From contig CP008936.1 in NCBI GenBank assembly GCA_000743035.1, forward strand, positions 330,001 to 362,000: DNA of 32,000 nt. Direction: 5' to 3'. Of this stretch, positions 1,598 to 32,000 are shown piece after piece. The translations under genes were made by a program, and so were the position numbers. The number at the start of each line of letters is the position of its first letter. Positions within the stretch are counted from its first letter, which is position 1. The notes below the pieces were generated by a model, which saw only the letters and a list, made by a program, of their open reading frames with translations, did no database searches and was not told where the DNA came from. The stretch comes from Candidatus Paracaedimonas acanthamoebae (GTDB taxonomy: Bacteria; Pseudomonadota; Alphaproteobacteria; Caedimonadales; Caedimonadaceae).

Positions 1598-2696
1598 TTA
1601 CTGTCTCATAGCTTTTTCATAGGCAACCCAAGCTTCGTTTGCGTACTGTTGAATGTACTTAAACGAGATTGTTCCCCGACCATTTCTGCCCCAATCGCGT
1701 CCCCAGCTGTTCTTAAAGAAGAAAACCCCTACATCATCATTATATCCATAGAGGGTAATGGCGTGGCTTCCCACGATGTTTTTTAAGGTGCTAGATATGT
1801 TACCAGACTGTGACCATTCTGCATTCCATTCGACAGGAACACCAATCACAACGGGGACCTTATAACGTGTCATAGCTTTTTTAATGACATCACTTTTATC
1901 AAAAGTACATTTTCCTCCTGTGCAAACTTGTCGTGAGCTTGCAAATAAATTCATAATATTATTGGCACCAAATTTGATCAGTTCGTCTTCTTGTTTGACA
2001 GTGCTTTGGGGAATAACGGCACAGACATTCCACGTTTCTTCATCAGAAACACCTTTATTCATCTTTTTGACGGTCGTGACATATTCATCATAGGGCCACC
2101 ATTTTTGCCCACATAGCACTTCCTATTGTAAGACCATCATTTAAGCAATTCTCGCGCGCTTCAGCTTTTACAATAAGATATGGCTGAGATAACATCCGGT
2201 TATGAAGAAATTTAAGTGCCTCAACAACAGCAAAGCTTGCACAAGTCCCAAGCTCACCTTGATTTTCAACAGAAAGATCCCAGCTAATACCATTTTTCCC
2301 GACAATACTCGCAAGCTTTAATTTTGCTCCTGTGTAAGTCTCAGGTGGTGCCCCAGTATATTTTGTTGCGATATGTGCTGGGGTTTCAGTCAGCCATAAA
2401 GCACATCTTGCAGGATAATAGGGGATTGAATAAGGGACTTCAGTATATTGTGTCGCAGTGTAGTGGTTTTTGGGTTTAAAAGGGCTTTTTGTCACAGGTT
2501 GTGTTTTTGATATGCTCAACCCCTGGAATTGGCGATGATAGTTCTCGTCGGGATATTCCTCATCATAGTAACTACCATAGCGACTACTATGGGCAGAATA
2601 AAAACTGATTAAAGCTAAAACAGCCGTTAAACTTCCTATCTTAAAGAAGTTAAAGCTCTTATGCTTCCATCTATAAAAAGTGTTATTCATGATCAT
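1598..2696 (-). pseudogene. Papain-family (C1) cysteine peptidase with an N-terminal membrane anchor, split by a frameshift
   Basis: ORF 2088-2696 has a good SD (aggagaggg), a TM segment IGSLTAVLALISFY and the Gln/Cys block NQGELGTCASFA. ORF 1598-2119 has the His block GSHAITLYGY and the Asn block KNSWGRDWG. The two frames meet at a T5 run at 2102-2106 (A5 on the coding strand). Removing one A gives the continuous reading ..SAMWAKWWPYDEY.. Confidence 0.8.
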
Positions 2697-3162
2697 TTTC
2701 CCTCTCCTAAAAAGGTTGTTAAAAATGGATGGCTACGAAAAGTAGGGATCCATTCCAGAAGCTAATAAGAAATTTAAATGAGAGGCTATGCGTAAAATTT
2801 TCTTAAGTATCTTGTTTGAGTAAAAATTACCTAAAGACCAAGCACAAAATAGACGTAATTTTTAATTTTTGTTACAAAATATATTGATATTTGTAACTTT
2901 TTGTGATAGTCTATTAATAGATGGTCAGAGATGATTTTTCCTTACTGATGACCCGAGATAAGTCAGTAATCCTTTTACGAAGTCTCTATTCCCATTCAAT
3001 AAAATAATAATAAAGGAATGTAAAAACCTAAATTATTAAATAAATAAGTCCTTTAACGCTCTTTTTGAGCGAATACCCTCTCTTTGTCTGATGAGAAGGG
3101 CAGGAAGAGGCAGGGGATAGGAAGGACTCAGAGGTTTTGGTTTGTCATTCTCTCTTCTCGTT

Positions 3163-3274
3163 TGACATCCTCGGCCTTGTGCCGAGGATGTCAGACAACC
3201 AAAAAGCGCTAAAAGGTGCCAGAAGGTCCTCACTTGTGTAGGAGAGCACGGGCCAGGGTGGAGAGAATGGAATG
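3163..3274 (+). repeat. Module copy X1: 13-bp perfect hairpin plus a short purine-rich leader ending in ATG
   Basis: tgacatcctcggc (3163-3175), loop cttgt, gccgaggatgtca (3181-3193). The following tcagacaaccaaaaagcgctaaaag resembles tcaggcaaccagaggatgctgaaag of X2. It ends in ggtggagagaatggaATG. Confidence 0.6.
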
Positions 3275-3377
3275 ATTTTGGAGTGTGAGGACATAGTTTT
3301 AAGTTTTCTGGGGCAACAAGAGAAGCAACGATTGGTGATAGGGAAGATCCTCAGGTTACTTGAATCTCTTTCTTGTT

Positions 3378-3545
3378 ATTCCCGCGCAGGCGGGGATCCA
3401 GGAAATACTGGAGGATATCGAATGACGATGGGAAAGATCTTTAGGTCGCTCGAGATCCTAGGCACAGGGCCTAGGATGACGAGAGTTGAAGGATTTGTAA
3501 GTCACAGGTGAGGGCTGAGAGAAATGAAAATAAACAAAGAAAGGA
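3378..3545 (+). repeat. Repeat unit A, carrying two hairpins
   Basis: attcccgc-gcag-gcggggat hairpin at 3378-3397. atcctaggc-acagg-gcctaggat hairpin at 3455-3477, followed by gatgac, caggtgagg and gaaaataaa blocks. It aligns with unit B. Confidence 0.75.
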
Positions 3546-3610
3546 GAGGAAAAATGTTGGGAAACAAAAGAATTAAAACTGATGAACTGCAGGGCTCATC
3601 CACCACATGG

Positions 3611-3784
3611 TCATCCTTGGGCTTGTCCCAAGGATCTCAGGCAACCAGAGGATGCTGAAAGTCGCTAGACGATTCCTAACCGGACATGAGAGGCAAGGGG
3701 CAGGGCGAGGAAAGAAGACACAAAGAAATAGATGAAAGTATGAATAACAATGATTAACGATAGAAACAACAGGAGGCAAAAATG
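3611..3784 (+). repeat. Module copy X2: hairpin, leader of about 150 nt, then consensus SD plus ATG
   Basis: atccttggg-cttgt-cccaaggat hairpin at 3614-3636, then ctcaggcaaccagaggatgctgaaa, and an ending aaacaacaggaggcaaaaATG (ATG at 3782-3784). The end blocks are nearly identical to the inverted copy at 31850-32000. Confidence 0.75.
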
Positions 3785-3984
3785 TCAAAAGAACAGGAAC
3801 AAAGAAAAAAGAGTGAGAAACATAGTTACATGCATGAGGGGCGCAGAATCTCAGGGGAAAGCACGAGAGAAGATGTTGATTATCGGAACTTCTTGAATCG
3901 CTGGTAGGACCTGATCTTTAGGAAAGAAGGAAGGCAGAAAAATTGGTAGAAGGCATCGTATATGGTGGTCACCTTCTCTTCTGT

Positions 3985-4150
3985 CACCCCCGAGAAGGCG
4001 GGGATCCAGGGGATAATGGAGGGCATTGAATAGTGACAGAAGAAATCTTGAGGTTTCTTGAGATTCTCGGCACAAGCCTTAGGATGACGCAAACAAAGGA
4101 ACTTGGAACTCACAGGTGAGGTCTGAATGGAACTGAAAATAAATTAAGAA
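3985..4150 (+). repeat. Repeat unit B, a degenerate copy of unit A
   Basis: Shares with unit A the blocks ggcggggatccagg, gagattctcggcacaagccttaggatgacg (a decayed hairpin), cacaggtgaggtctga and gaaaataaa, in the same order and spacing. Confidence 0.75.
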
Positions 4151-4495
4151 AAGAAGAACAAATGAGGAGAAACAAAAGGTTAGAAAACAATAAAAGGGGC
4201 GTGTCATGGGCAAGCATCGTTGGTAAGAAGTGAAGGTTTTCAATAGAGAAAAGCAAGGTGATGAAATAATGATAAAAATTAACAAAGAAAACTGGCTTTA
4301 AAAATGCTCAAACAAGGCATGAAAATTTTGATAATTTTGCATTTTAGACAAATTTTCGTAGGAAATTATTAAATGGAAAATATAATTTATGGACTAGTGA
4401 AAAGCACGCTTTCATTTCTTTGCAAGAAAATATTTTCTTAAATGGCAAAATGTGTTATGGGTGAGTTCGTTTGGTATTGTTCAAAGGAATAGTTT

Positions 4496-5764
4496 ATGAA
4501 GATGTTTTTACATTTTGTTATTTTAGTCCTTTCATTCATATGTGCGAGTGGTTTTAAGGGCCACGCTTCTGCGTTTAGACCTGCCATCATTGAAGAGCGT
4601 GATGATGAGGGATATTTTAAAATGTTTCGAGAAAAACCAGAAGAGTTTACAGGTAGTGCGTTAAAAGCGTTCTTAAAGAGAATAATGGATTTATACCCAA
4701 CAGTAATTGCTTATGATAAAAAAGGACAAAATTTTACTGATACTATTTATAAGCGTTTTTTTAAGGCCGGCGATTATTATTTTACCTTCTTAACCAGACA
4801 TAATTTAATTAATGAGACATTTTTTAATTTAGAAAATGTAACAGTCGAATTTATAGCGAGCTCAAGTTCTGGGCTCCAAACAAAATTACATTATAATATT
4901 TTGTTAGGAGATAATGCGGTTCCCTTCAGCTTTAGGATTCTTTATGTCAGCGAATTTAATAAAAAAATTGCAAGCACCCCTTTGATCCATACTTATCAAA
5001 AAAGTAGAACAATCGAACTTGCGAAGAAGGTTATCTACCATAACTCCACGGTTTCCGGAGATTGGAACAATGCTGTTAAGAAGCAAGCTCAGATAGAGAA
5101 AAAGCGCGCAGAGACGTCTAAAGAAAAAAGTGAAGAAGCTAAAAAAGCAATAGAAGGATATTTCCGCGGTCTTTCAGATTCAACTACGCCGTTATCCTCT
5201 AGTGAATCACAAGTGTCGGCGTCTTCCTCAGCCAGCCCGATTGAGGGACGGCCTTCGATGGTACGTAAGTTTTCAACGCATGACTGGCCCAGGCCAATTG
5301 CTAAAAGCCCGCCTAAAAAGGTTGTTTTTCATACAGCCCCTCAAGCAAAAGAAGGGATAGAGCAACAATATATTCTGCCAAATCTTCCAAATAGTAAAAC
5401 TCTGCAACGAAAGCCCTCAAGAGCTATATTAGAAGAAAAAAAACAGCATGAGAAAAAGTTTAAAACAAAAAAAGATAAAGAAGAGCGTGTTGATTCCATC
5501 GAAAGACGCGCTTCAATAACTGGAAAAAGCATAAGCTCAGGCCTATCTTCTCCTTGGTTAAGCCCAAAAAGAGCCGAGAAGAATCTAAGCCTTAAAAGTG
5601 AGACACTTGCCTTTTTACCTCCGTCGAATACGAATCAAGAATTGGTTCCAGTGGTAGAGAAAGAATCGCTTGAAACTTCATCTAATTCTACGGAAGAAGA
5701 ACCTTATGACATAAGCCAAGCAGACATAGAGGAATTGTTTGAAGATATGCCAGAAAGCGAGTAA
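4496..5764 (+). CDS. Hypothetical secreted protein with a Ser/Lys/Glu-rich low-complexity C-terminal half
   Basis: SD aaggaa lies 8 nt upstream of the ATG. The N-terminus looks like a signal peptide (MKMFLHFVILVLSFICASGFKGHASA). There is no recognisable family motif. A basic cluster KKQHEKKFKTKKDKEER and an acidic tail are present. Confidence 0.7.
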   Translation: MKMFLHFVILVLSFICASGFKGHASAFRPAIIEERDDEGYFKMFREKPEEFTGSALKAFLKRIMDLYPTVIAYDKKGQNFTDTIYKRFFKAGDYYFTFLTRHNLINETFFNLENVTVEFIASSSSGLQTKLHYNILLGDNAVPFSFRILYVSEFNKKIASTPLIHTYQKSRTIELAKKVIYHNSTVSGDWNNAVKKQAQIEKKRAETSKEKSEEAKKAIEGYFRGLSDSTTPLSSSESQVSASSSASPIEGRPSMVRKFSTHDWPRPIAKSPPKKVVFHTAPQAKEGIEQQYILPNLPNSKTLQRKPSRAILEEKKQHEKKFKTKKDKEERVDSIERRASITGKSISSGLSSPWLSPKRAEKNLSLKSETLAFLPPSNTNQELVPVVEKESLETSSNSTEEEPYDISQADIEELFEDMPESE

Positions 5765-13851: not shown

Positions 13852-15390
13852 GTGGAGCGGATAGCGCAAACTTTAAGTAGTTGGGGGGCTCCACGACGGA
13901 CTCTTTTTGGAATTGTGATAATAATAATAACGTTTTTAAGCATCTATTATTTATTCATAAAAGCTTCACCTCTGCCTATGGCTCTTTTGTACTCAGATTT
14001 AGAACTTGCAGATGCAAGTCGTATTGTTGCGCGGCTAGGAAAACAAGGGGTCCCCGTTGACCTTAAAGCCGAAGGGACGCAAATTTATGTACCTGCTGAG
14101 AAAGTTGCTCGTTTGCGTATGGAGATGGCAGAAGTAGGTATTCCTAAAGGAAGAATTGTAGGATACGAGATCTTTGATCAAAATGCGGCCAATACAAGTT
14201 CTAACTTTATGCATGATATAAAACATTTACGCGCATTAGAAGGTGAGCTTGCGCGGACAATTTCTTCTTTAGAGGCTGTTATATCAGCAAGAGTGCATCT
14301 AGTTCTTCCCAGACGAGAATTATTTATAAAAGAGCAACAACAGCCAAGTGCCTCAATAGTTCTCCATATACGTGATTCTAAAAAGTTAAAGCAATCTAAA
14401 GTGTTGGCTATCCAACATCTTGTAGCCTCAGCCGTGCCAGGACTTGTGCCTGATGCAGTTGCAATTATTGATGATAAAGGAAATCTGTTGGCAAAGAGTG
14501 ATGCTGAAACAGATTCACAACATCAAACAAATATTGAAGAAATTCGTATGGCTTATGAAACAAGAACAGCCCAGATGATTGAGGGTTTAGTAGGCAAGTA
14601 TGTGGGGCCTGATAAGGTGCGAGCTGAAGTGACAGCTGAAGTAGATATTGATCGTTTTTCACAAGAAGAAGAGCGTTATGATCCTCAAGGACAAGTTGAA
14701 AGGTCGCGTCAAATTATTCGAAAATCTAACGAACCCCATGATTTGACAGAAGAGAATATTAAGTATGAGGTTACAAAGTTAGTTCAAAAGCAATCACGTG
14801 AATCTGGTAGTATAAGGCGGCTTTCTGTTGCCGTCGTTATTGATGGGCATTATCTTCATGATGACAAGGGCAAAGAGCTTTACCAACCAAGATCTCCAGA
14901 AGAGATGGAACAATTAAAAAAACTTATATCCTCAGCAATTGGATTCAATGCTGAGCGAAAGGATCAGCTTGAAGTCATCAATATGCCTTTTGCAAAGGTT
15001 GGAGACCATAGAACACGTCCCATTGATTATTCTGAACCTATTATTGCCTTTAAGCATTCGGAATTATTAAGATTTGCAGAACTCTTAATTTTCATTATCG
15101 CAACTTTGTTAGGAATTATGATTGTCATAAAACCACTTGGATTTAGTTTCTCGTTAAAAAAACAAAGAGCAAGCACAAACCAGGATCCAACTCAACCGTC
15201 TCTTTCTCAAATGGATTTAAATCCTTCGCAAGAAGTAAATTTTGTTACAAAGCCACTACAACTTCAATTTTCTCAGCAGGTTAAGGAGAATGTAAGTGAA
15301 TTGTCACAACAAAGAATTAAATATATTCTTGATCATCACCTTGAAGAAGCGGTAAGCGTACTTCGAGATTGGATTCAGGAAGGAAAATAG
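13852..15390 (+). CDS. fliF: Flagellar M-ring protein FliF
   Basis: GTG start 7 nt after SD gaggag. N-terminal TM, then a YscJ/FliF-type periplasmic ring region (LYSDLELADASRIVARLGKQGVPV, SARVHLVLP, PSASIVL), a second TM near the C-terminus and a FliG-binding tail. Confidence 0.92.
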   Translation: MERIAQTLSSWGAPRRTLFGIVIIIITFLSIYYLFIKASPLPMALLYSDLELADASRIVARLGKQGVPVDLKAEGTQIYVPAEKVARLRMEMAEVGIPKGRIVGYEIFDQNAANTSSNFMHDIKHLRALEGELARTISSLEAVISARVHLVLPRRELFIKEQQQPSASIVLHIRDSKKLKQSKVLAIQHLVASAVPGLVPDAVAIIDDKGNLLAKSDAETDSQHQTNIEEIRMAYETRTAQMIEGLVGKYVGPDKVRAEVTAEVDIDRFSQEEERYDPQGQVERSRQIIRKSNEPHDLTEENIKYEVTKLVQKQSRESGSIRRLSVAVVIDGHYLHDDKGKELYQPRSPEEMEQLKKLISSAIGFNAERKDQLEVINMPFAKVGDHRTRPIDYSEPIIAFKHSELLRFAELLIFIIATLLGIMIVIKPLGFSFSLKKQRASTNQDPTQPSLSQMDLNPSQEVNFVTKPLQLQFSQQVKENVSELSQQRIKYILDHHLEEAVSVLRDWIQEGK

Positions 15391-15394
15391 GAAG

Positions 15395-16420
15395 ATGCCT
15401 ACTCAGGAGACTGTAAGGCCGGTAACAAATTCTAAGTTTTCATTATTTGATAAGCTCGCTATTTTTTTGCTTTCGCTACCACAAAATGAAGTAAAGAAGA
15501 TTTTTTCGAAGTTTAATGCTCATGAAGTCAAAAGTATATTGCAAAGAATGGCGGCTGTTGGCTCTCTTGACGTAACACAAGTTGAAGATCTATATTTAGA
15601 ATTTTCAGAAGCAGTGGAAAAGCTAATGGATAAATCAGAGTCTTCTGAAGGTGCCGAGAGAGTCTTAAGGAAGCTGTTCCATCCTTTTGATCTGAACGAG
15701 AGTATGATCGAGCCGCAAAAGATTAAGGTAGACGAACTATCAGAAACACTAAAAAACATTACTTCTTCAAGTCTTGCAAAATTCCTTAAAAATGAACATC
15801 CTCAAATAATTTCACTTATCTTAAGTAGGATTGATCCACAGAAAGCAGCCTCAATTTTTATTGAATTTCCTGAGGCGCTATCCATCGATATTATGAATAG
15901 GATGCTTACAATGGAGCAAGTTCAACAAGAAGTTGTCAACGAGGTTGAAAATACACTTAAAGCTGAATTTAAAGATATTCTCACGCCGGCAATTCAGCAA
16001 GATGCTTGTGCGCATATGGCGGATATTTTTAACGCTTTTAATCCAAAAGACGAAGTGAAATTTATGCAAGGGCTTGAATCAAAGAATAGTGAGGCGGCCA
16101 AACATATTAAAGATCTTATTTTAACGATTGAAGACTTAAAGTATGTTGAAGGGACAGGAATTAAAACAATTCTTAGTATTGCTGATAAAAGTAAGCTTGT
16201 GATTGCTTTGAAAGGAGCAAGCGAATCTTTAAAAGAGATTTTCTTCTCTCACATGTCCGAGCGGTCGGCTAAACTTTTAAAAGAGGAAATAACGGCTTTG
16301 GGTATGGTTAAAATTCGTACTGTCTATGAAGCTCAACAGGAGATTGTTAGCCAAGCAAAAGAATTTATTAGAAAAGGTGAAATTCATCTAAATAAATCGC
16401 TCTTCAGTAAGCGAGTTTAA
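15395..16420 (+). CDS. fliG: Flagellar motor switch protein FliG
   Basis: 341 aa with the EHPQIISLILSRIDPQKAASIF block and a C-terminal domain containing MSERSAKLLKEEI. It starts 4 nt after fliF ends. Confidence 0.92.
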   Translation: MPTQETVRPVTNSKFSLFDKLAIFLLSLPQNEVKKIFSKFNAHEVKSILQRMAAVGSLDVTQVEDLYLEFSEAVEKLMDKSESSEGAERVLRKLFHPFDLNESMIEPQKIKVDELSETLKNITSSSLAKFLKNEHPQIISLILSRIDPQKAASIFIEFPEALSIDIMNRMLTMEQVQQEVVNEVENTLKAEFKDILTPAIQQDACAHMADIFNAFNPKDEVKFMQGLESKNSEAAKHIKDLILTIEDLKYVEGTGIKTILSIADKSKLVIALKGASESLKEIFFSHMSERSAKLLKEEITALGMVKIRTVYEAQQEIVSQAKEFIRKGEIHLNKSLFSKRV

Positions 16421-16550
16421 GAGTATAATTCATCTCAATTAAAAAATTTGTAAATCTTCTCTTTGAGACTCAAAATTTATAAGAGAAGTTTTATAGGGCC
16501 TAATTTGGGGGACATTTTATAGAGGGGAAGCATCCTAGAAGGGGGAATGG

Positions 16551-16922
16551 ATGAGCAGTAATGATCAAAAAAAAATAATAAAAGACAATCGGGATTTTAT
16601 AAGTAATACTGAATTCACACCATTAAATGATATTTTTTTTAACAGTAGTTCTCAGTCTGAAAAAAGTTTACAGTCACCTGTTGATTTGAAAGCTATATAT
16701 GAAGTGCCTGTTCAGGTTTCAGCCATTCTAGGACGAGCAAATATTCCCATTAAGCAACTTTTAAAACTTGTGCCAGGAAGTATTATTGAGTTAGATCGAA
16801 AAGTTGGGGACCCAATAGATATTTATGTTAATAATCATTTACTGGCTCGTGGCAATCTCGTCTTAATGGATAAGCATCTTGGAATTACTATTACTGAAAT
16901 TATTAAAATTGAAAGAAGTTAG
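16551..16922 (+). CDS. fliN: Flagellar motor switch protein FliN
   Basis: SpoA/FliN domain: VPVQVSAILGRANIPIKQLLKLVPGSIIELDRKVGDPIDIYVNNHLLARGNLVLMDKHLGITITEI. SD agggggaa precedes the start. Confidence 0.9.
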   Translation: MSSNDQKKIIKDNRDFISNTEFTPLNDIFFNSSSQSEKSLQSPVDLKAIYEVPVQVSAILGRANIPIKQLLKLVPGSIIELDRKVGDPIDIYVNNHLLARGNLVLMDKHLGITITEIIKIERS

Positions 16923-17317
16923 TAATACTTAAAGAGGGTTAGTTTATGGTTTTTAATGAGGGACTAAGTGTACATATTTATTAGTTCTTGTTACGTGAAA
17001 TTTTAAAACTGTAGCAATTAAGCCACAGCGTGCATTGTTTAGAGAAGATAGTCTTATGAATTTAGCTCGACAATTATGGTACCCAAAGGCTAACTAAGAA
17101 AGCATATTATTTGGGATGATCTAAGAGGGGGAGACAAGTGTATAATTTATTCATCAGAAAAAGCGATATTATCAGCGGCTCAGCTCATAAAATTTTAAAG
17201 CTATTCAGCCAAGAAAATTAAATTTCTAGCTTTCTTTATCACCTAATAGAATTGATCTCGAAGGTGGTTAATAAAAAGACTGTTTATGGCATATGGTAAT
17301 CAAGGAGGAGCAAAAGG

Positions 17318-18319
17318 ATGCGCCTTAAAACGTTCAGAGCATCGACAATGACAGAGGCTCTGCAGGAAATCAAAAAAGAATTTGGTCCAGAAGCAGTTAT
17401 TTTATCTACGCTTGAGAGAAAAAATGAAGTTTCCGTAACGGCAGCTTTAGAACATAGGAATGAATTAAACTTCAATGAAGTTGCTGCTAATGAACCACTT
17501 GGCTTTTTAAATGATTTTTGTCGTATTCTAGAACACCATCGTGTGCCAGCTGCTATTCAGGAGAGGCTTATTTGGTCCCTTTCATCTTCACAAGAAGAAA
17601 TGACAGGTAAGAGTTTTGAAGATGTACTTAATACAATCTTTAGTTTCAAACCTATTATTAACTCTAAAGGTAAATTCCTTCCGCCTGCGCGTTTAGCTCT
17701 TCTTGGGCCGCCCGGGGCTGGTAAGAGTGTAACGATTGCAAAGCTTGCATCAGAGTATGTTATGGCAGGATTTGAACCTTTTGTAATTACGCTTGATTGC
17801 TTGAAAGCGGGAGCTATTACACAACTTGAAGTTTATATGAAAGCAATTGGACTTCCTCTTCATGCAGTTGAGAATGTTAAGCAGTTTAAAAAAGTGTTAA
17901 ATGAGTCTCCCGTTAATACTTATATTTTGGTAGATACGCCAGGAATTAACCCTTACAGTAAAGATGAAGTTCAATTTTTAGAGGAAGTTGTAGATTGCTT
18001 GAATGGTGAGGTCATTCTTACGTTTCCTGCTGGTCTTGATTCTTGGGAAATTAGTGATTATTTAGGGTTATATAAAGGTTTAGGTATAAAAAGAGTTATT
18101 TTGACGAGAGCAGATATCACGCACCGATATGGAGCTTTAATAACCTCTCTTTATGAAGGCCAATTTTCCCTTGCACAAGTGAGTGCAGGACCAGAATTAG
18201 GATCACGCTTAAAAATTGGAGATTCTAAATTGCTTGCAGAACTTTTAAGGAAATTTCAAGATATTAATGCAATCCCGCATTTTTCTTTAGAAGAAGTGGC
18301 AAAGGAGCTAAGAGGGTGA
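17318..18319 (+). CDS. flhF: Flagellar biosynthesis SRP-type GTPase FlhF, short form
   Basis: N-terminal B-domain start MRLKTFRASTMTEALQEIKKEFGPEAVILS. NG domain motifs GPPGAGKSVTIAKLA, DTPG and LTRADIT. Consensus SD aaggagg. Confidence 0.88.
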   Translation: MRLKTFRASTMTEALQEIKKEFGPEAVILSTLERKNEVSVTAALEHRNELNFNEVAANEPLGFLNDFCRILEHHRVPAAIQERLIWSLSSSQEEMTGKSFEDVLNTIFSFKPIINSKGKFLPPARLALLGPPGAGKSVTIAKLASEYVMAGFEPFVITLDCLKAGAITQLEVYMKAIGLPLHAVENVKQFKKVLNESPVNTYILVDTPGINPYSKDEVQFLEEVVDCLNGEVILTFPAGLDSWEISDYLGLYKGLGIKRVILTRADITHRYGALITSLYEGQFSLAQVSAGPELGSRLKIGDSKLLAELLRKFQDINAIPHFSLEEVAKELRG

Positions 18320-19107
18320 GTATGTTAAAAATGGGCTTAAAAAATCTTAGGTTAGATCAGCAAGAAGCGCCGGAGAATATTTACTTTATTGCGTCAGGAA
18401 AAGGAGGGGTAGGAAAAACATGGTTTTCAATTACTTTTTCTCAAGCTCTTGGGCAACAAGATAAAAAAATACTTTTGTGTGATGGTGATCTTGGGCTTGC
18501 CAATATAGATATCCAATTGGGTTTAACCGCAGAGAAAGACCTTACCAGTAGTCTCATGAATTACATTGAGCTTAAAGATGTAATCATACCTTATCCTCAA
18601 GGAGGATTTGATGTAATTGCAGGTCGCTCAGGCAGCGGTACTTTGGCAACCCTTCCACCTCAAAGTTTAATATACTTAAGAGAACAACTTAAAAAATTAT
18701 CCTCTGTTTATGATATCATTTTGGTTGATTTAGGCGCAGGCGTAGGAACAACCATCCAAAATCTAATGCAAATCGCTGGGCAGTGTATCGTGGTTATTAC
18801 AGATGAACCAACTTCTTTAATGGATGCCTATGCTTTCATAAAAGTGATGCATGGACGTCGCCAAGTGCTTCCTATGAATATCATTATTAATCAAGCAGAA
18901 ACCCTAGAAGCTGGCAAAAGAACGTATGAGATCATTCAACAAGTATGTGAAAAGTTTTTAAATATGACACCTCATCTATTGGGCATCATAAGAAGAGATC
19001 CTTATGTGCGAGATACAATCTGTGCACAAACACCTATCCTAACACGTTACCCTACTGCTCCTGCGGCAGAGGATGTTAAGGGAATTGTACAGATGATTAC
19101 CAGTTAA
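18316..19107 (+). CDS. flhG: MinD/ParA-type ATPase FlhG (FleN/YlxH)
   Basis: Deviant Walker A SGKGGVGKTW, and CDGDLGLANIDIQLGL. It overlaps the flhF stop by 4 nt. Alternative ATG starts lie at 18322 and 18334. Confidence 0.85.
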   Translation: MSMLKMGLKNLRLDQQEAPENIYFIASGKGGVGKTWFSITFSQALGQQDKKILLCDGDLGLANIDIQLGLTAEKDLTSSLMNYIELKDVIIPYPQGGFDVIAGRSGSGTLATLPPQSLIYLREQLKKLSSVYDIILVDLGAGVGTTIQNLMQIAGQCIVVITDEPTSLMDAYAFIKVMHGRRQVLPMNIIINQAETLEAGKRTYEIIQQVCEKFLNMTPHLLGIIRRDPYVRDTICAQTPILTRYPTAPAAEDVKGIVQMITS

Positions 19108-29328: not shown

Positions 29329-30240
29329 ATGTTTTTAATATCGCTTTTTACAAAGTTGACCTCTTTATTAGATCCGCAACGTGATTCTTCTAAAGTTGTC
29401 CTCAGCATCTGTCTGATGATCCTCTGGGCCTTGAGCTTTACGGTGGCCATGTCTTTTGCCAAAATTGTTCGTGGTGAGATCCCCAGCCTTATGATTCTTT
29501 TCTTAAGGTGTTTCTTTGGTTTCCTTTTCTTTTCTCCTTTTGTGATCAAAGAAGGAATAAGTGGCTTACGCACAAGGCGCCCGTTTCTTCATGGAATTCG
29601 CGTCATATTAACGTGTACAGCAATGTTTTGTACTTATTATGCCTATCGCCATTTACCCCTAGCAACTGCTTCTGCGATTGGATTTACAAGCCCTTTATTT
29701 ACAACAATATTTTCCTTTTTATTTTTTAAGGAGAAAATATCCTATAAGAAATGGATGACAATCTTCGCAGGGTACCTTGGAGTTCTCATTATCCTCCGAC
29801 CCTTTTCCTTGCACTTTGACAAAGCTATGTACGTTGCTCTTTTGGCTAACGCTGTAGCAAGCGGGTCTATCATTGCAGCTAAGAGACTTTCATCAACAGA
29901 ATCGACGATTACAATCCTATTTTATACCAATGTCGCCACGTTTCTTCTATCATCTTTTTCTGTCATATGGGTCTGGCAAGCACCTGAAATGAGAGAGATT
30001 TTGATCCTCGCGTGTGTTGGCCTTGCAGGCATCTTATCGCAATTTTTTTATATTAAAGCCTTGAAGCTTGGAAAGCCTTCCTTTTTATCTCCATTTGAAT
30101 ATACGCGCCTTCTGTTTGCGATTCTTGTGGGATCGTTATTTTTTCATGAGACTCTTGATCTATGGTCCTTGATGGGTGCTCTTGTTATTATTCTTGCGAC
30201 ATTTTTTCTAAGTCGTATGGAAATAAATTCACAAAAATAA
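29329..30240 (+). CDS. EamA/DMT-family transporter (intact)
   Basis: 303 aa with 10 predicted TM segments in two EamA-like halves. SD aaagga lies immediately upstream of the ATG. Confidence 0.82.
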   Translation: MFLISLFTKLTSLLDPQRDSSKVVLSICLMILWALSFTVAMSFAKIVRGEIPSLMILFLRCFFGFLFFSPFVIKEGISGLRTRRPFLHGIRVILTCTAMFCTYYAYRHLPLATASAIGFTSPLFTTIFSFLFFKEKISYKKWMTIFAGYLGVLIILRPFSLHFDKAMYVALLANAVASGSIIAAKRLSSTESTITILFYTNVATFLLSSFSVIWVWQAPEMREILILACVGLAGILSQFFYIKALKLGKPSFLSPFEYTRLLFAILVGSLFFHETLDLWSLMGALVIILATFFLSRMEINSQK

Positions 30241-30329
30241 TGCTTATTTTTCTTGATGATCTTGATAAATGTGAGCCTCTTAAAGCCTCCTCATTATTAT
30301 AAATCTCCTGTTTGGCGTCATTCAAGAAA

Positions 30330-30354
30330 AAGGCCTCAGGTTTTCTGAGGCCTT
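30330..30354. terminator. Bidirectional rho-independent terminator
   Basis: aaggcctcag (30330-30339), 5-nt loop, ctgaggcctt (30345-30354). It is flanked by an A-run upstream and a T-run downstream, between convergent genes. Confidence 0.75.
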
Positions 30355-30367
30355 AGATTTTTAAGAA

Positions 30368-30646
30368 TTAAAATGTTTGTTCAACAATTGAAAGGATGTC
30401 ATTCTTCTTAATCCCGCTCGCCTTAGCATTCAAAAGCGCATATACTGAAAGATCACGGATGCCTTCTACGGTAAAACGAAACTCTTCAGATGTTTCTTTT
30501 TGTTGTCTTAATAAACTCACCTCAGCTTTAAGGATGGTTGGTGCTGTATATTGGCCTTGTTTATTGCTAATGAGGGTAACAATTTCACCGTTAATTGTTT
30601 TTAAAAGGATGCCTTTTAAAATAATATTATTAGAAAAGAAATCCAA
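30368..30646 (-). CDS. Hypothetical small protein (doubtful)
   Basis: 92 codons with protein-like composition, ending just before the terminator. Only a TTG start is available and there is no visible SD. Confidence 0.35.
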   Translation of the reverse strand: MDFFSNNIILKGILLKTINGEIVTLISNKQGQYTAPTILKAEVSLLRQQKETSEEFRFTVEGIRDLSVYALLNAKASGIKKNDILSIVEQTF

Positions 30647-30742
30647 AACTTGTTTTTTTCGAGGAAAGCTTACTGCAGACTAAAGTTTTTTTGCGTTTTC
30701 AAAAGCTAATTGTTCTTTATCAGAAACATCGATCTTTAGCAC

Positions 30743-31852
30743 TTAAGCAAAAGAAGGAGTTGAAGCATCAATGGTCTTTCTTTCTTCTTCCTTTTTTACA
30801 TCTGCTTCTAAAGTGTCATAAGTCGTTTGATACTCTGGGCTTAAGACAACAACCTTTTGTTTAGACACAGAACTCTGTGCAGGCCCAGACCCTGGAGGAG
30901 GAGGTGGTGGTGGTGGCGCAAAGCTAGATGATGGTATAGCTGCTGAGCTAGCGTTCGTCACACTTTGAAGAAGTTGGGAATTTTCTTCTGTTAATTTTTT
31001 AATAACAGCTTCGAGCTTTTGCATTTCCTCATTAGGTTGAGCTTTAATAGTGGAGATTAATTTTTTAAGTTGAGTGGAGTCAGCTGGTTCTAAGATGGCT
31101 TCAATGTTAAAAGTGTAGCTTTGTGCTAAAGGATTGTCACTAGTGAGCCACTTTTTGGCCTGAGTAATAAGTGCTTCATCATACTGAAAAGTAATAACGA
31201 CGCTGTTTTTTTTTAGGTCTGGAAAAGCATCAAGCACATTGAGAATTTGTTTTTTATTCGAGAAAACAGCATATGAGGAAGGGAGCATTGCTTTAAAGGC
31301 TTCTTTTATAGCTTGATCATTTTCCTCTGATTCACCAGGAACCCAAAAACGATAGCTTATACCATTAACAGTCACATGATTTTCTGTTTTTAATCCATTA
31401 AAAGCATTGCAAGCTAAATTATAAGGAGCATACTTTTTGATAATTGCTTGAATCTCTAATTGAGAGTCCACTTGAAGCTGAGAGGCGCTAGAGGAGGGAC
31501 TTTGCTTTTCCTCTTGATCATCACTCGCATACGAAATGCTGGCAAGACTGAGAAAAGCCTTGGTTAAGAGTAGATATTTCTTCATGGTTAAGTGTCCTGC
31601 TAAAGTTAGGGGAATGGACTCTACACATTTTATATTTAGGAAACATTTTTGAACTTTTAAGTGCAATTTTTGACTGTAAGGGTTTGCAGAAAGGCATAAG
31701 TCGTTTATGAGATTCTTCTCATGATTTTCTCCGGAATAGCTTTTTGCACTTGATAATTCTCTTTCTTGTCGCTTTTTAAGTATTAGGTTTTTTCCTGTAA
31801 AAGAACTTCTAATGGCCCCTTTAATTTTCTGATAAATATTCTTATGTAGCAT
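30743..31852 (-). CDS. Hypothetical exported or membrane-anchored protein with a coiled-coil and a polyproline (P8) tract
   Basis: ATG 31852 follows a consensus SD (acaggaggtaaaaATG). The frame stays open for 89 codons before an internal Met at 31585 that begins a classical signal peptide (MKKYLLLTKAFLSLASISYA). It is unresolved whether the product is 369 aa with a signal anchor or 280 aa with a cleaved signal peptide. FAPPPPPPPPGSGP lies near the C-terminus. Confidence 0.7.
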   Translation of the reverse strand: MLHKNIYQKIKGAIRSSFTGKNLILKKRQERELSSAKSYSGENHEKNLINDLCLSANPYSQKLHLKVQKCFLNIKCVESIPLTLAGHLTMKKYLLLTKAFLSLASISYASDDQEEKQSPSSSASQLQVDSQLEIQAIIKKYAPYNLACNAFNGLKTENHVTVNGISYRFWVPGESEENDQAIKEAFKAMLPSSYAVFSNKKQILNVLDAFPDLKKNSVVITFQYDEALITQAKKWLTSDNPLAQSYTFNIEAILEPADSTQLKKLISTIKAQPNEEMQKLEAVIKKLTEENSQLLQSVTNASSAAIPSSSFAPPPPPPPPGSGPAQSSVSKQKVVVLSPEYQTTYDTLEADVKKEEERKTIDASTPSFA

Positions 31853-32000
31853 TTTTACCTCCTGTTGTTTTTTATCTTTGTTCCTTGTTATCCAAACCCT
31901 CATTTACCTCATCATGCTTTCCTTCCTTTCCCCCCATTTGCGCCTCTCACGTACGAGTGATGACTTTTTGGTACTTTTCAGCATCCCTTTGTTGCCTGAG
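31850..32000 (-). repeat. Module copy X3, an inverted copy of X2, running off the window edge
   Basis: The reverse complement reads ctcaggcaacaaagggatgctgaaaag...gtgagaggcg...aaacaacaggaggtaaaaATG, against X2 ctcaggcaaccagaggatgctgaaagt...atgagaggca...aaacaacaggaggcaaaaATG. Both are the same length, about 150 nt, from ctcagg to ATG. The hairpin would lie beyond base 32000. Confidence 0.7.

Follow-up and report, generated by a model that had tools for sequence, protein, structure and literature searches.

Repeat units in the 5' leaders of Candidatus Paracaedimonas acanthamoebae genes probably belong to a lineage-specific polar mosaic built on CGTC-tagged REP hairpins

Near one end of a 32,000-nt stretch of DNA from Candidatus Paracaedimonas acanthamoebae, a Holosporales endosymbiont of Acanthamoeba (contig CP008936.1, positions 330,001 to 362,000; hereafter the window) lies an intergenic region of 1.8 kb (2696-4496) whose + strand is strongly purine-rich, with a GC skew of 0.26 and an AT skew of 0.23 between 3001 and 4000. 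It is followed by IM40_01775 (4496-5764, + strand), which encodes the signal-peptide protein AIL12535.1, while at the other end of the window the annotated polyproline open reading frame (ORF) IM40_01905 (30743-31852, - strand; product AIL12554.1) starts at ATG 31852. The subject of this work is a module of about 150 nt that occurs in both places, at 3636-3784 within the intergenic region and, on the opposite strand, at 31850-32000, where it reaches the annotated start of the polyproline ORF. An earlier reading of the window (the original prediction) took this module for a portable leader associated with secreted, effector-like genes. Our analysis indicates that the two copies are probably paralogs of one unit, the A unit, in a lineage-specific repeat mosaic that occurs in Paracaedimonas and related Holosporales and forms polar arrays in gene leaders.

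The reverse complement of 31850-32000 aligns with 3636-3784 from end to end, as had been claimed, with 71.6% identity over 155 columns (blastn within the window, E 1.7e-12). A repeat search of the window returned the two ends of this alignment as inverted arms, namely 3636-3660 with 31976-32000 (25 nt, 22/25 identical, 88%) and 3764-3784 with 31850-31870 (21 nt, 20/21 identical, 95%). The local alignment of the two copies scored 70, whereas 1000 shuffles that preserved dinucleotides gave 18.3 +/- 2.7 (z = 19.5). The middle of the module, which had been described as diverged, scored 30 by itself, above 1000/1000 shuffles. Both copies close with the same Shine-Dalgarno (SD) and start block, AGGAGG-N5-ATG, so that the textbook SD and ATG noted previously are present in each. 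The string AACAGGAGG has two sites only in the 32 kb, in the SD blocks of these copies, and the ordinary genes of the window have weak SDs that are dissimilar to it. A third copy, at 3162-3268, is more diverged and is devoid of the SD block.

It could be argued that two purine-rich ribosome-binding regions have come to look alike by chance, a possibility that the original prediction itself had named as fatal to it. Both ends of the alignment are of low complexity and purine-rich, and internally repeated AACAAGGAACAAAGA-like strings in the leader make the alignment partly ambiguous. However, because of the z score and of the central segment, which exceeds every shuffle, the likeness goes beyond a mere resemblance of SD regions. 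Furthermore, a hidden Markov model built mainly on other genomes matches 31944-32000, and AACAGGAGG is confined to the two copies within the window. Chance resemblance is refuted; the similarity is far greater than it would produce.

The copy at 3636-3784 is part of an array. A pattern scan of the window found four hairpins matching CATCCTNNGNNNTGTNCCNAGRATNTC in alternating orientation (3166+, 3452-, 3612+ and 4060-), and two more, of the ATTCCCGC..GCGGGGATCCAG type, at 3374-3401 and 3982-4009. The forward hairpins carry a flank that we call A, and the reverse hairpins are part of a second unit, B. Unit A2 (3608-3907, + strand) comprises a hairpin at 3610-3636 (tag GGTC, stem ATCCTTGGG / CCCAAGGAT), an A-head that extends to 3692, a purine-rich tract, AGGAGG at 3771-3776, ATG 3782 and a TAG at 3905-3907. 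Unit A1 (3162-3268, + strand; hairpin 3166-3192, tag TGAC) is the diverged copy without the SD-ATG block. Unit B1 consists of a B-type head with an inverted hairpin, CGTCATCCTAGGCCCTGTGCCTAGGATCTCG, of the CGTC or Ssn-related motif (SRM) type (3421-3481, - strand), together with an NTS-type hairpin, TGTTATTCCCGCGCAGGCGGGGATCCAG, at 3374-3401 on the + strand, whose second copy is the one at 3982-4009. A second B-type head with its inverted hairpin, B2, lies at 4029-4089 (- strand) in a wider segment, 3989-4178, that is 74% identical to 3381-3570 (blastn within the window). The copy at 31850-32000 (- strand) was designated A3 from its alignment to 3636-3784, from the nhmmer match of an A-head at 31944-32000 and from the annotation; it is made up of the A-head (32000-31944), a purine-rich tract, AGGAGG at 31863-31858 and the ATG at 31852-31850.

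The array is headed by a promoter-like structured segment on the + strand, the P-region (2880-3088), which was delimited by nhmmer, alignments and hairpin covariation, and IM40_01775 is the first gene 3' of both. Between the end of the array and ATG 4496 lie about 400 nt of ordinary, AT-rich DNA, and this ATG has a weak SD of its own. The array (3.1-4.3 kb) was predicted to point in the same direction as the gene at 4496, and it does: P-region, forward A units, reverse B units and gene form one polar series. As a separate observation, a sub-motif, TTCAAYCGCTGGTRGGAYCTGATCTT, is found at 3890-3925 and in B units of two related loci (L067 and L130; L numbers denote loci in relatives and metagenomes throughout), and it gives rise to look-alike peptide ends (..NRWWDLIF) in spurious ORFs at several loci.

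No described element of this architecture had been known to the original prediction. For the hairpin this is wrong, since it is a CGTC-tagged repetitive extragenic palindrome (REP; PMC3733652) of the same class as the NTS and SRM hairpins (PMC11893778), and hairpin-bounded mosaics are known in Neisseria and E. coli. The hairpin has an unpaired tag, a 9-bp stem starting with AT (ATCCTNGGN / NCCNAGGAT), a 5-nt loop and a 3-nt tail. Over 32 distinct A-type copies, stem pairs 1-9 are 97% paired and the loop-closing pair varies between GC, CG and UA. In the window the CGTC tag itself is seen at 3481-3478 and 4089-4086 on the - strand, with GGTC in A2 and TGAC in A1, and among 130 metagenome copies the tag is mostly CGTC, TGTC or GGTC. 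Both an NTSvar-like (CGTCATCCTNGG..CCNAGGATC) and an NTS-like (ATTCCCGCGCAGGCGGGGATCCAG) form are present in the window; the tail is CTC in NTSvar-like copies and CCA in NTS-like copies, the rule for CGTC REPs being mostly CCA. The NTS-type hairpin TGTTATTCCCGCGCAGGCGGGGATCCAG is almost the same as the NTS consensus, CGTCATTCCCGCGMAVGCGGGAATCYRG, that PMC11893778 gives. Allowing one substitution, the published SRM search pattern, HGTCWYN(0-2)YYVSBRHN(0-5)WNVSBRGN(0-2)RNCYNB, matches the window four times, where shuffled sequence gives 2.4 on average. Three of these matches fall in the array (3374-3401, 3982-4009 and 3451-3481, the last within B1) and one elsewhere (29450-29482).

CGTC REPs form a mainly alphaproteobacterial superfamily that includes dRS3 of Neisseria and RPE-4 and RPE-6 of Rickettsia. 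Its hairpins have a terminal tag that may also read TGTC or CCTC, a stem of 8-9 bp whose first pairs are A-T and T-A, and a loop of 4-5 nt, and the survey of 2013 stated that no enzyme was dedicated to them (Di Nocera, De Gregorio and Rocco, PMC3733652). Chenal et al. (2025, PMC11893778) have since described Ssn, site-specific single-strand DNA nucleases of the GIY-YIG type that recognise NTS, NTSvar and SRM hairpins, with a hairpin-ssn-hairpin architecture as the rule and with SRMs enriched in symbionts such as Rickettsia and Wolbachia. An SRM in the full sense would flank an ssn gene (single-domain GIY-YIG, about 95 codons long) of its own genome and would be cleaved by the cognate Ssn as single-stranded DNA in just one orientation.

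The same hairpin was found by one pattern scan in 119 metagenome stretches, which split into high-GC contigs with inverted hairpin dimers and low-GC contigs (0.36-0.45 GC) in which the hairpin is accompanied by A or B flanks of the type seen in the window. The low-GC contigs could be assigned in part, to Caedibacter sp. 37-49 and 38-128 and to metagenome-assembled genomes of P. acanthamoebae. In the high-GC loci (0.57-0.71 GC; L030, L034, L056, L059, L115 and others) the two inverted hairpins of a dimer are set about 60-65 nt apart by a conserved spacer (GGTT...AACC); these dimers are a separate REPIN-like family (REPIN, REP doublet forming hairpins) of other alphaproteobacteria. A scan of viral contigs for the hairpin gave no match, nor did a blastn search of 2860-4300 against plasmids, and a contig scan of other genomes with the leader pattern TCAGRCAACNARRRRNNGCTRAAA returned just 25 chance matches in unrelated taxa.

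In related low-GC Holosporales loci (58 loci, 382 kb in total, some redundant contigs included) nhmmer matched the A head 66 times, the inverted B head 47 times and the P-region 32 times. The inner flank is conserved over 50-90 nt in A units. Alternating hairpin orientation is also seen in L084, L100, L108, L126 and other loci. Wherever an array includes a P-region, its A units are all on the P strand and its B units all on the opposite strand, and the first long ORF past the array has the same orientation in 17/20 distinct cases (binomial p about 0.003, in our own reading of the nhmmer layout). An orientation bias relative to genes, which the original prediction required, is thus found in the loci of relatives, but without any specificity for secreted proteins. 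The polarity follows the gene and not replication, since the two window copies sit on opposite strands while the GC skew has one sign across the whole window.

The P-region, of about 220 nt, was further identified in L145 (5704-5919), L148 (5537-5739), L152 (3610-3811) and about 25 more loci, and includes a near-invariant segment, TTCTTGAWWTTTGTATC. It has the appearance of a sigma-70 promoter, with TTGATA at 2884-2889, a 17-nt spacer and TGnTAGTCT (TAGTCT at 2907-2912), followed by GTAGATGGTCAGAGATGA and four conserved hairpins. The first of these hairpins stays in place although its stem sequence varies, with 2-5 pair types at each of pairs 4-8. It is 92.9% paired, whereas shuffling the partners gives 73.6 +/- 2.0% and sliding them 29-46%; a further hairpin, CGCTC/GAGCG, shows GC/AU covariation in 8/24 copies. 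Pairing was scored by anchored pair counts, which replaced RNAalifold on MAFFT alignments; the latter detected no more than two hairpins, that of the REP and one in the P-region, since the stems are shifted out of register by indels in the loops. Rfam gave 0 matches at the gathering score for the whole window, and only noise for 2600-4600 (at most 24 bits, E at least 0.56). A scan of the + strand from the P-region to 4496 found no terminator-like site.

These features suggest that the P-region acts as a promoter. The idea of a shared 5' regulatory leader, put forward in the original prediction, gains from the fact that a P-region heads the array and also precedes the polyproline orthologs in L145 and L148, although the promoter role that it presupposes is itself putative. 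The P-region might go further and be a new multicopy cis-acting RNA with its own promoter, forming with the mosaic a portable promoter-leader cassette that symbionts of the Holosporales have set before at least 15 unrelated genes, with the SD-ATG of an A unit occasionally captured as a start; we hold this extended proposal to be rather unlikely. If it were correct, such an RNA may, for example, sense a signal or shield long untranslated transcripts from termination.

An alternative is that the array and the P-region make up a stand-alone non-coding RNA gene, such as a GGA-rich protein sponge, and not a leader. The + strand of 3001-4000 is purine-rich and abounds in GGA motifs, the P-region is both conserved and structured, and the 400-nt AT-rich gap sets the array apart from ATG 4496. 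Against it, there is no terminator-like site at the end of the array, the P-region of L145 lies within about 80 nt of the polyproline start without any array, no Rfam family matches, and a CsrA-type partner was not found, no search aimed at one having been made. We regard a stand-alone RNA gene as improbable.

Upstream of orthologous genes the mosaic differs between relatives. The polyproline gene is preceded in L145 by a P-region and then about 80 nt, in L148 by a P-region and then a decayed A unit, in L151 by a forward hairpin and A-head about 150 nt from the ATG, as predicted for the window, and in L147 and L150 by a reverse hairpin, a B-type tail and a second SD-ATG. The SD-ATG remains constant while the mosaic varies (L145, L147, L148, L150, L151 and L152). 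Similarly, the ortholog of the 4496 gene in L152 is preceded by a P-region, one A and one B unit, compared with two of each in the window. These differing mosaics and unit numbers fit duplication and recombination among units, and in this sense the module behaves as a recombination substrate would, in line with what had been anticipated.

Genes for small GIY-YIG proteins (PF01541) lie by the hairpins in relatives (L084 2589-2870, L104 11661-11942 and L103 58-336). In L084, from Caedibacter sp. 37-49, the ssn gene has an A-type hairpin on one side and an inverted B-type hairpin on the other. Their inner flanks are as in gene-less units, and the latter could therefore be derivatives of an ssn cassette. 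All eight ssn homologs that we inspected in plasmid or chromid records (L155-L162, from S. meliloti, A. lipoferum, N. gonorrhoeae, N. aromaticivorans, Rhizobium, Sphingobium, Aeromonas and Shinella) are bracketed by inverted, species-specific CGTC hairpins. Such bracketing is not new, having been published in 2025 for the Ssn family (PMC11893778).

One may therefore ask whether the units are non-autonomous mobile elements (REPIN-like or resembling miniature inverted-repeat transposable elements), in which the A and inverted B ends delimit an ssn-less cassette moved in trans by an Ssn-type nuclease, the leader position being a by-product of target or tolerance bias. The arrangement in L084, the 8/8 bracketed homologs and the variable unit number, with one A...B pair in L152 and two in the window, all agree with this, and the hairpin-ssn-hairpin architecture has itself been likened to an insertion sequence. 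However, Ssn has been shown to cut single-stranded DNA, not to transpose (PMC11893778), and we found no target-site duplications and no pairs of empty and filled sites. In L104 the ssn gene has the downstream hairpin alone nearby, the best 120 matches included no Ssn named as P. acanthamoebae, and transposition alone would leave the strict polarity of P-region and gene unexplained. Mobility of this kind is possible, though we consider it somewhat unlikely. Ends of IS200/IS605, bridge-RNA leaders of IS110, retron msr/msd, integron attC arrays and boxA-type antitermination sites were considered and dropped, as there was no cognate gene, the hairpins were inverted and not direct, or the motifs did not fit.

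ATG 3782 does open a 41-codon ORF within the array, ending at the stop codon 3905-3907. The tail of A2, including its SD-ATG, recurs in L104 and L076, where homology with 3636-3784 continues for about 65 nt past the ATG with frame-breaking indels (in L076 the ORF is of 4 codons), so the module extends past the ATG, contrary to what had been proposed. Strong SD-ATG sites are 3.4x denser in mosaic zones than elsewhere, and 18 of 23 open fewer than 100 codons. Given the indels in relatives and the mostly short ORFs at such sites, ATG 3782 is not the start of a conserved protein.

ATG 31852, on the other hand, was predicted to open the polyproline frame, and the evidence on this is mixed. In its favour, it is the annotated start, its SD-ATG, within the block ACAGGAGGTAAnAATG, is conserved in 6/6 orthologous loci, and the first 89 codons (31852-31586) are open in five of the six, with one in-frame 9-nt indel. 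Nevertheless, these codons appear as a weakly constrained extension, with a ratio of non-synonymous to synonymous substitution rates (dN/dS) of 0.47-0.82, compared with 0.16-0.35 in the mature part. In L150 the extension is broken by an in-frame TAA after 27 codons. Directly downstream of it, an internal ATG at 31585 begins a canonical signal peptide, MKKYLLLTKAFLSLASISYA. The approximately 80 nt before this ATG (31660-31583, - strand) are nearly invariant across L145, L147, L148, L150 and L151, although the proteins are just 44-77% identical to that of the window. In the orthologs this stretch reads as a near-consensus promoter, TTGAAA-16-TAAATA, with AAGGA; the window has TTAAAA (31660-31655), 16 nt, TAAATA (31638-31633) and AGGA. 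It is most likely, judging from these sequence features, that the secreted polyproline protein proper starts at 31585, and that translation from the module ATG at 31852 would produce a long N-terminal extension or else the peptide of an upstream ORF.

The polyproline gene is itself degraded in the window (30250-30760, - strand), with in-frame stops where orthologs have Q or W (TPSFA*..KKL*) and about 100 amino acids (aa) missing internally. A 92-aa ORF at 30368-30646 is the C-terminal remnant of the gene and is 77% identical to residues 529-624 of P0025.

The architecture of P-region, A and B units is found upstream of diverse genes. Besides the 4496 gene and its ortholog in L152, and the polyproline orthologs in L145 and L148, these comprise rpsL-rpsG-fusA, a malic enzyme, an NAD-glutamate dehydrogenase, an H+-pyrophosphatase, MerR with a CopA-like ATPase, a lipoate-ligase-like protein, a 173-aa protein ahead of PBP1A, ssn (GIY-YIG) and, in L058, a 552-aa signal-peptide protein. 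In L154 it is maeB that the P and A elements face, and the 4496 ortholog lies in the other direction. As the downstream genes are mostly housekeeping or unrelated, the link to secreted or effector genes is unsupported, and with it this part of the original prediction. The polyproline and 4496 proteins were also considered as possible paralogs, which was rejected (BLASTP E = 3.7).

A dedicated leader and translation-initiation cassette for secreted, effector-like genes would account for the signal-peptide genes downstream of both window copies, for the use of ATG 31852 as annotated start with its conservation in the six orthologous loci, and for the 552-aa protein of L058. Apart from the range of downstream genes and the orientation in L154, it is contradicted by the homology that runs past ATG 3782 with frame-destroying indels, by the 18/23 mosaic SD-ATG sites with short ORFs, and by the end of the array about 400 nt before ATG 4496, which uses its own weak SD. 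We consider it largely refuted, and very improbable.

We favour the view that the A unit, composed of a CGTC REP hairpin, an inner flank of 50-90 nt and a purine-rich tract able to carry AGGAGG-ATG, alternates with inverted B units in arrays that are placed 3' of a P-region and 5' of the first gene, with one polarity. Transcription would begin at the P-region and run through the arrays, which would form long 5' leaders. The units would multiply and be reshuffled by duplication and by recombination between repeats, and may have originated as gene-less derivatives of a hairpin-ssn-hairpin cassette. The SD-ATG would be carried along as a part of the unit, opening short non-conserved ORFs within arrays, as at 3782; at the polyproline gene a copy would have been placed at the annotated start and kept across orthologs, as a true start or as an upstream ORF. 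If so, one expects directly 5' of CTCAGGCAAC, beyond 32000, a hairpin (N)GTCATCCTNGG-N5-CCNAGGAT and, probably within about 1 kb, a P-region.

Several points weigh against this view. A3 was assigned from its A-head, tract and SD-ATG, and its own hairpin would fall outside the window. The census was drawn from relatives and from metagenome contigs selected for carrying the hairpin, and not from the source genome. The published, hand-made SRM pattern is matched exactly nowhere in the window, the array hairpins departing from it at single positions, for instance at the base after CTC. Outside the hairpin the A-head is 67-88% paired with little covariation, a modest degree of structural support. 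The promoter call for the P-region draws on conservation alone and its -10 hexamer, TAGTCT, is weak, which is why a consensus promoter scan missed it. Finally, since no Ssn homolog named as P. acanthamoebae was among the best 120 matches, the nuclease link may be historical in the source genome.

Compared with CGTC REPs and SRMs in general, the Holosporales hairpins share the tag, the 9-bp stem starting with AT, the 5-nt loop and the short tail; they are likewise multicopy, often in inverted pairs, and flank ssn in close relatives. They differ in carrying a conserved A or B inner flank of 50-200 nt, in having CTC and not CCA as tail in the NTSvar-like copies, and in that two of the four NTSvar-like window copies have deviant tags (GGTC, TGAC). 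In addition, the CGTC REPs of the 2013 survey are mostly downstream of coding regions (PMC3733652), whereas the Holosporales ones lie in polar 5' leaders.

The window array is made of tandem units bounded by alternating REP hairpins, the arrangement that characterises mosaics of the NIME/BIME type (Neisseria intergenic and bacterial interspersed mosaic elements). In the intergenic mosaics of Neisseria, inverted dRS3 hairpins delimit RS repeat units of 100-300 nt; the mosaics adjoin genes whose flanks differ from strain to strain, and they may promote recombination. Their dRS3 corresponds to CGTC-1 and is clustered in these mosaic regions (PMC3733652). The likeness lies in the arrays of 100-300-nt units, bounded by inverted hairpins of the CGTC class and with variable flanks; the unit sequences are presumably unrelated, and the Holosporales arrays are headed by a P-region, polar with respect to the gene and placed before housekeeping genes too. 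The BIMEs of E. coli and the REPIN/RAYT systems (PMC2817692, PMC3116915) similarly show alternating REPs with conserved linkers and an enzyme gene bracketed by its own hairpins. BIME linkers, however, are of tens of nt, against a spacing of 160-450 nt in Holosporales arrays, and REPIN/RAYT systems combine a GTAG tag with a Y1 HUH transposase, where we find a CGTC tag and, in relatives, a GIY-YIG nuclease (PF01541), so that the array falls outside REPIN/RAYT. As the organisms are unrelated, we treat the window array, judged on its architecture, as an analogue and not a sequence member of the Neisseria mosaics and E. coli BIMEs.

Rickettsia palindromic elements (RPEs) are noted for inserting in frame into genes. 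Compared by description, RPE-4 and RPE-6, which contain CGTC REPs (PMC3733652), resemble the present units in being CGTC-hairpin repeats of 100-150 nt in an intracellular alphaproteobacterium, sometimes abutting coding sequence or reaching into it. RPEs insert in genes, however, whereas the Holosporales unit lies upstream and adds at most an SD and an ATG. Small repeats that bear promoters are represented by Correia elements or 'mobile promoters'. As in these, one near-identical promoter-like segment is found before many non-homologous genes, but the P-region is without visible terminal inverted repeats and extends for about 200 nt of covarying, RNA-like structure past the putative start site.

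An unexplained repeat of an amoeba symbiont is thereby placed in the class of CGTC REPs and Ssn motifs, to which an enzyme was given in 2025, and its hairpins are organised unlike the described cases, with long flanks, polar 5' leaders and a structured promoter-like P-region before unrelated genes. The searchable literature suggests that the long conserved A and B flanks, the strictly polar 5' leader location and the shared structured P-region are new in Holosporales. Should the P-region prove to be a functional leader RNA, it would represent a new regulatory RNA class in poorly studied intracellular bacteria, with repeats spreading regulatory 5' ends, and if the promoter-leader cassette were real, it would imply a repeat-borne, genome-wide rewiring of the 5' ends of genes. 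Otherwise, the repeat is explained and annotators are warned that strong SD-ATGs in mosaics mostly open spurious short ORFs.

Two further features of the window were noted. On the - strand, overlapping ORFs of 173 and 202 aa (1598-2119 and 2088-2696), the first of which matches Peptidase_C1, are probably one frameshifted gene; the syntenic locus in L152 has a single Peptidase_C1 gene of 387 aa. At 13852-19107 this obligate amoeba symbiont has a flagellar cluster that encodes FliF, FliG, a FliN-domain protein and FlhF- and FleN/MinD-like ATPases.

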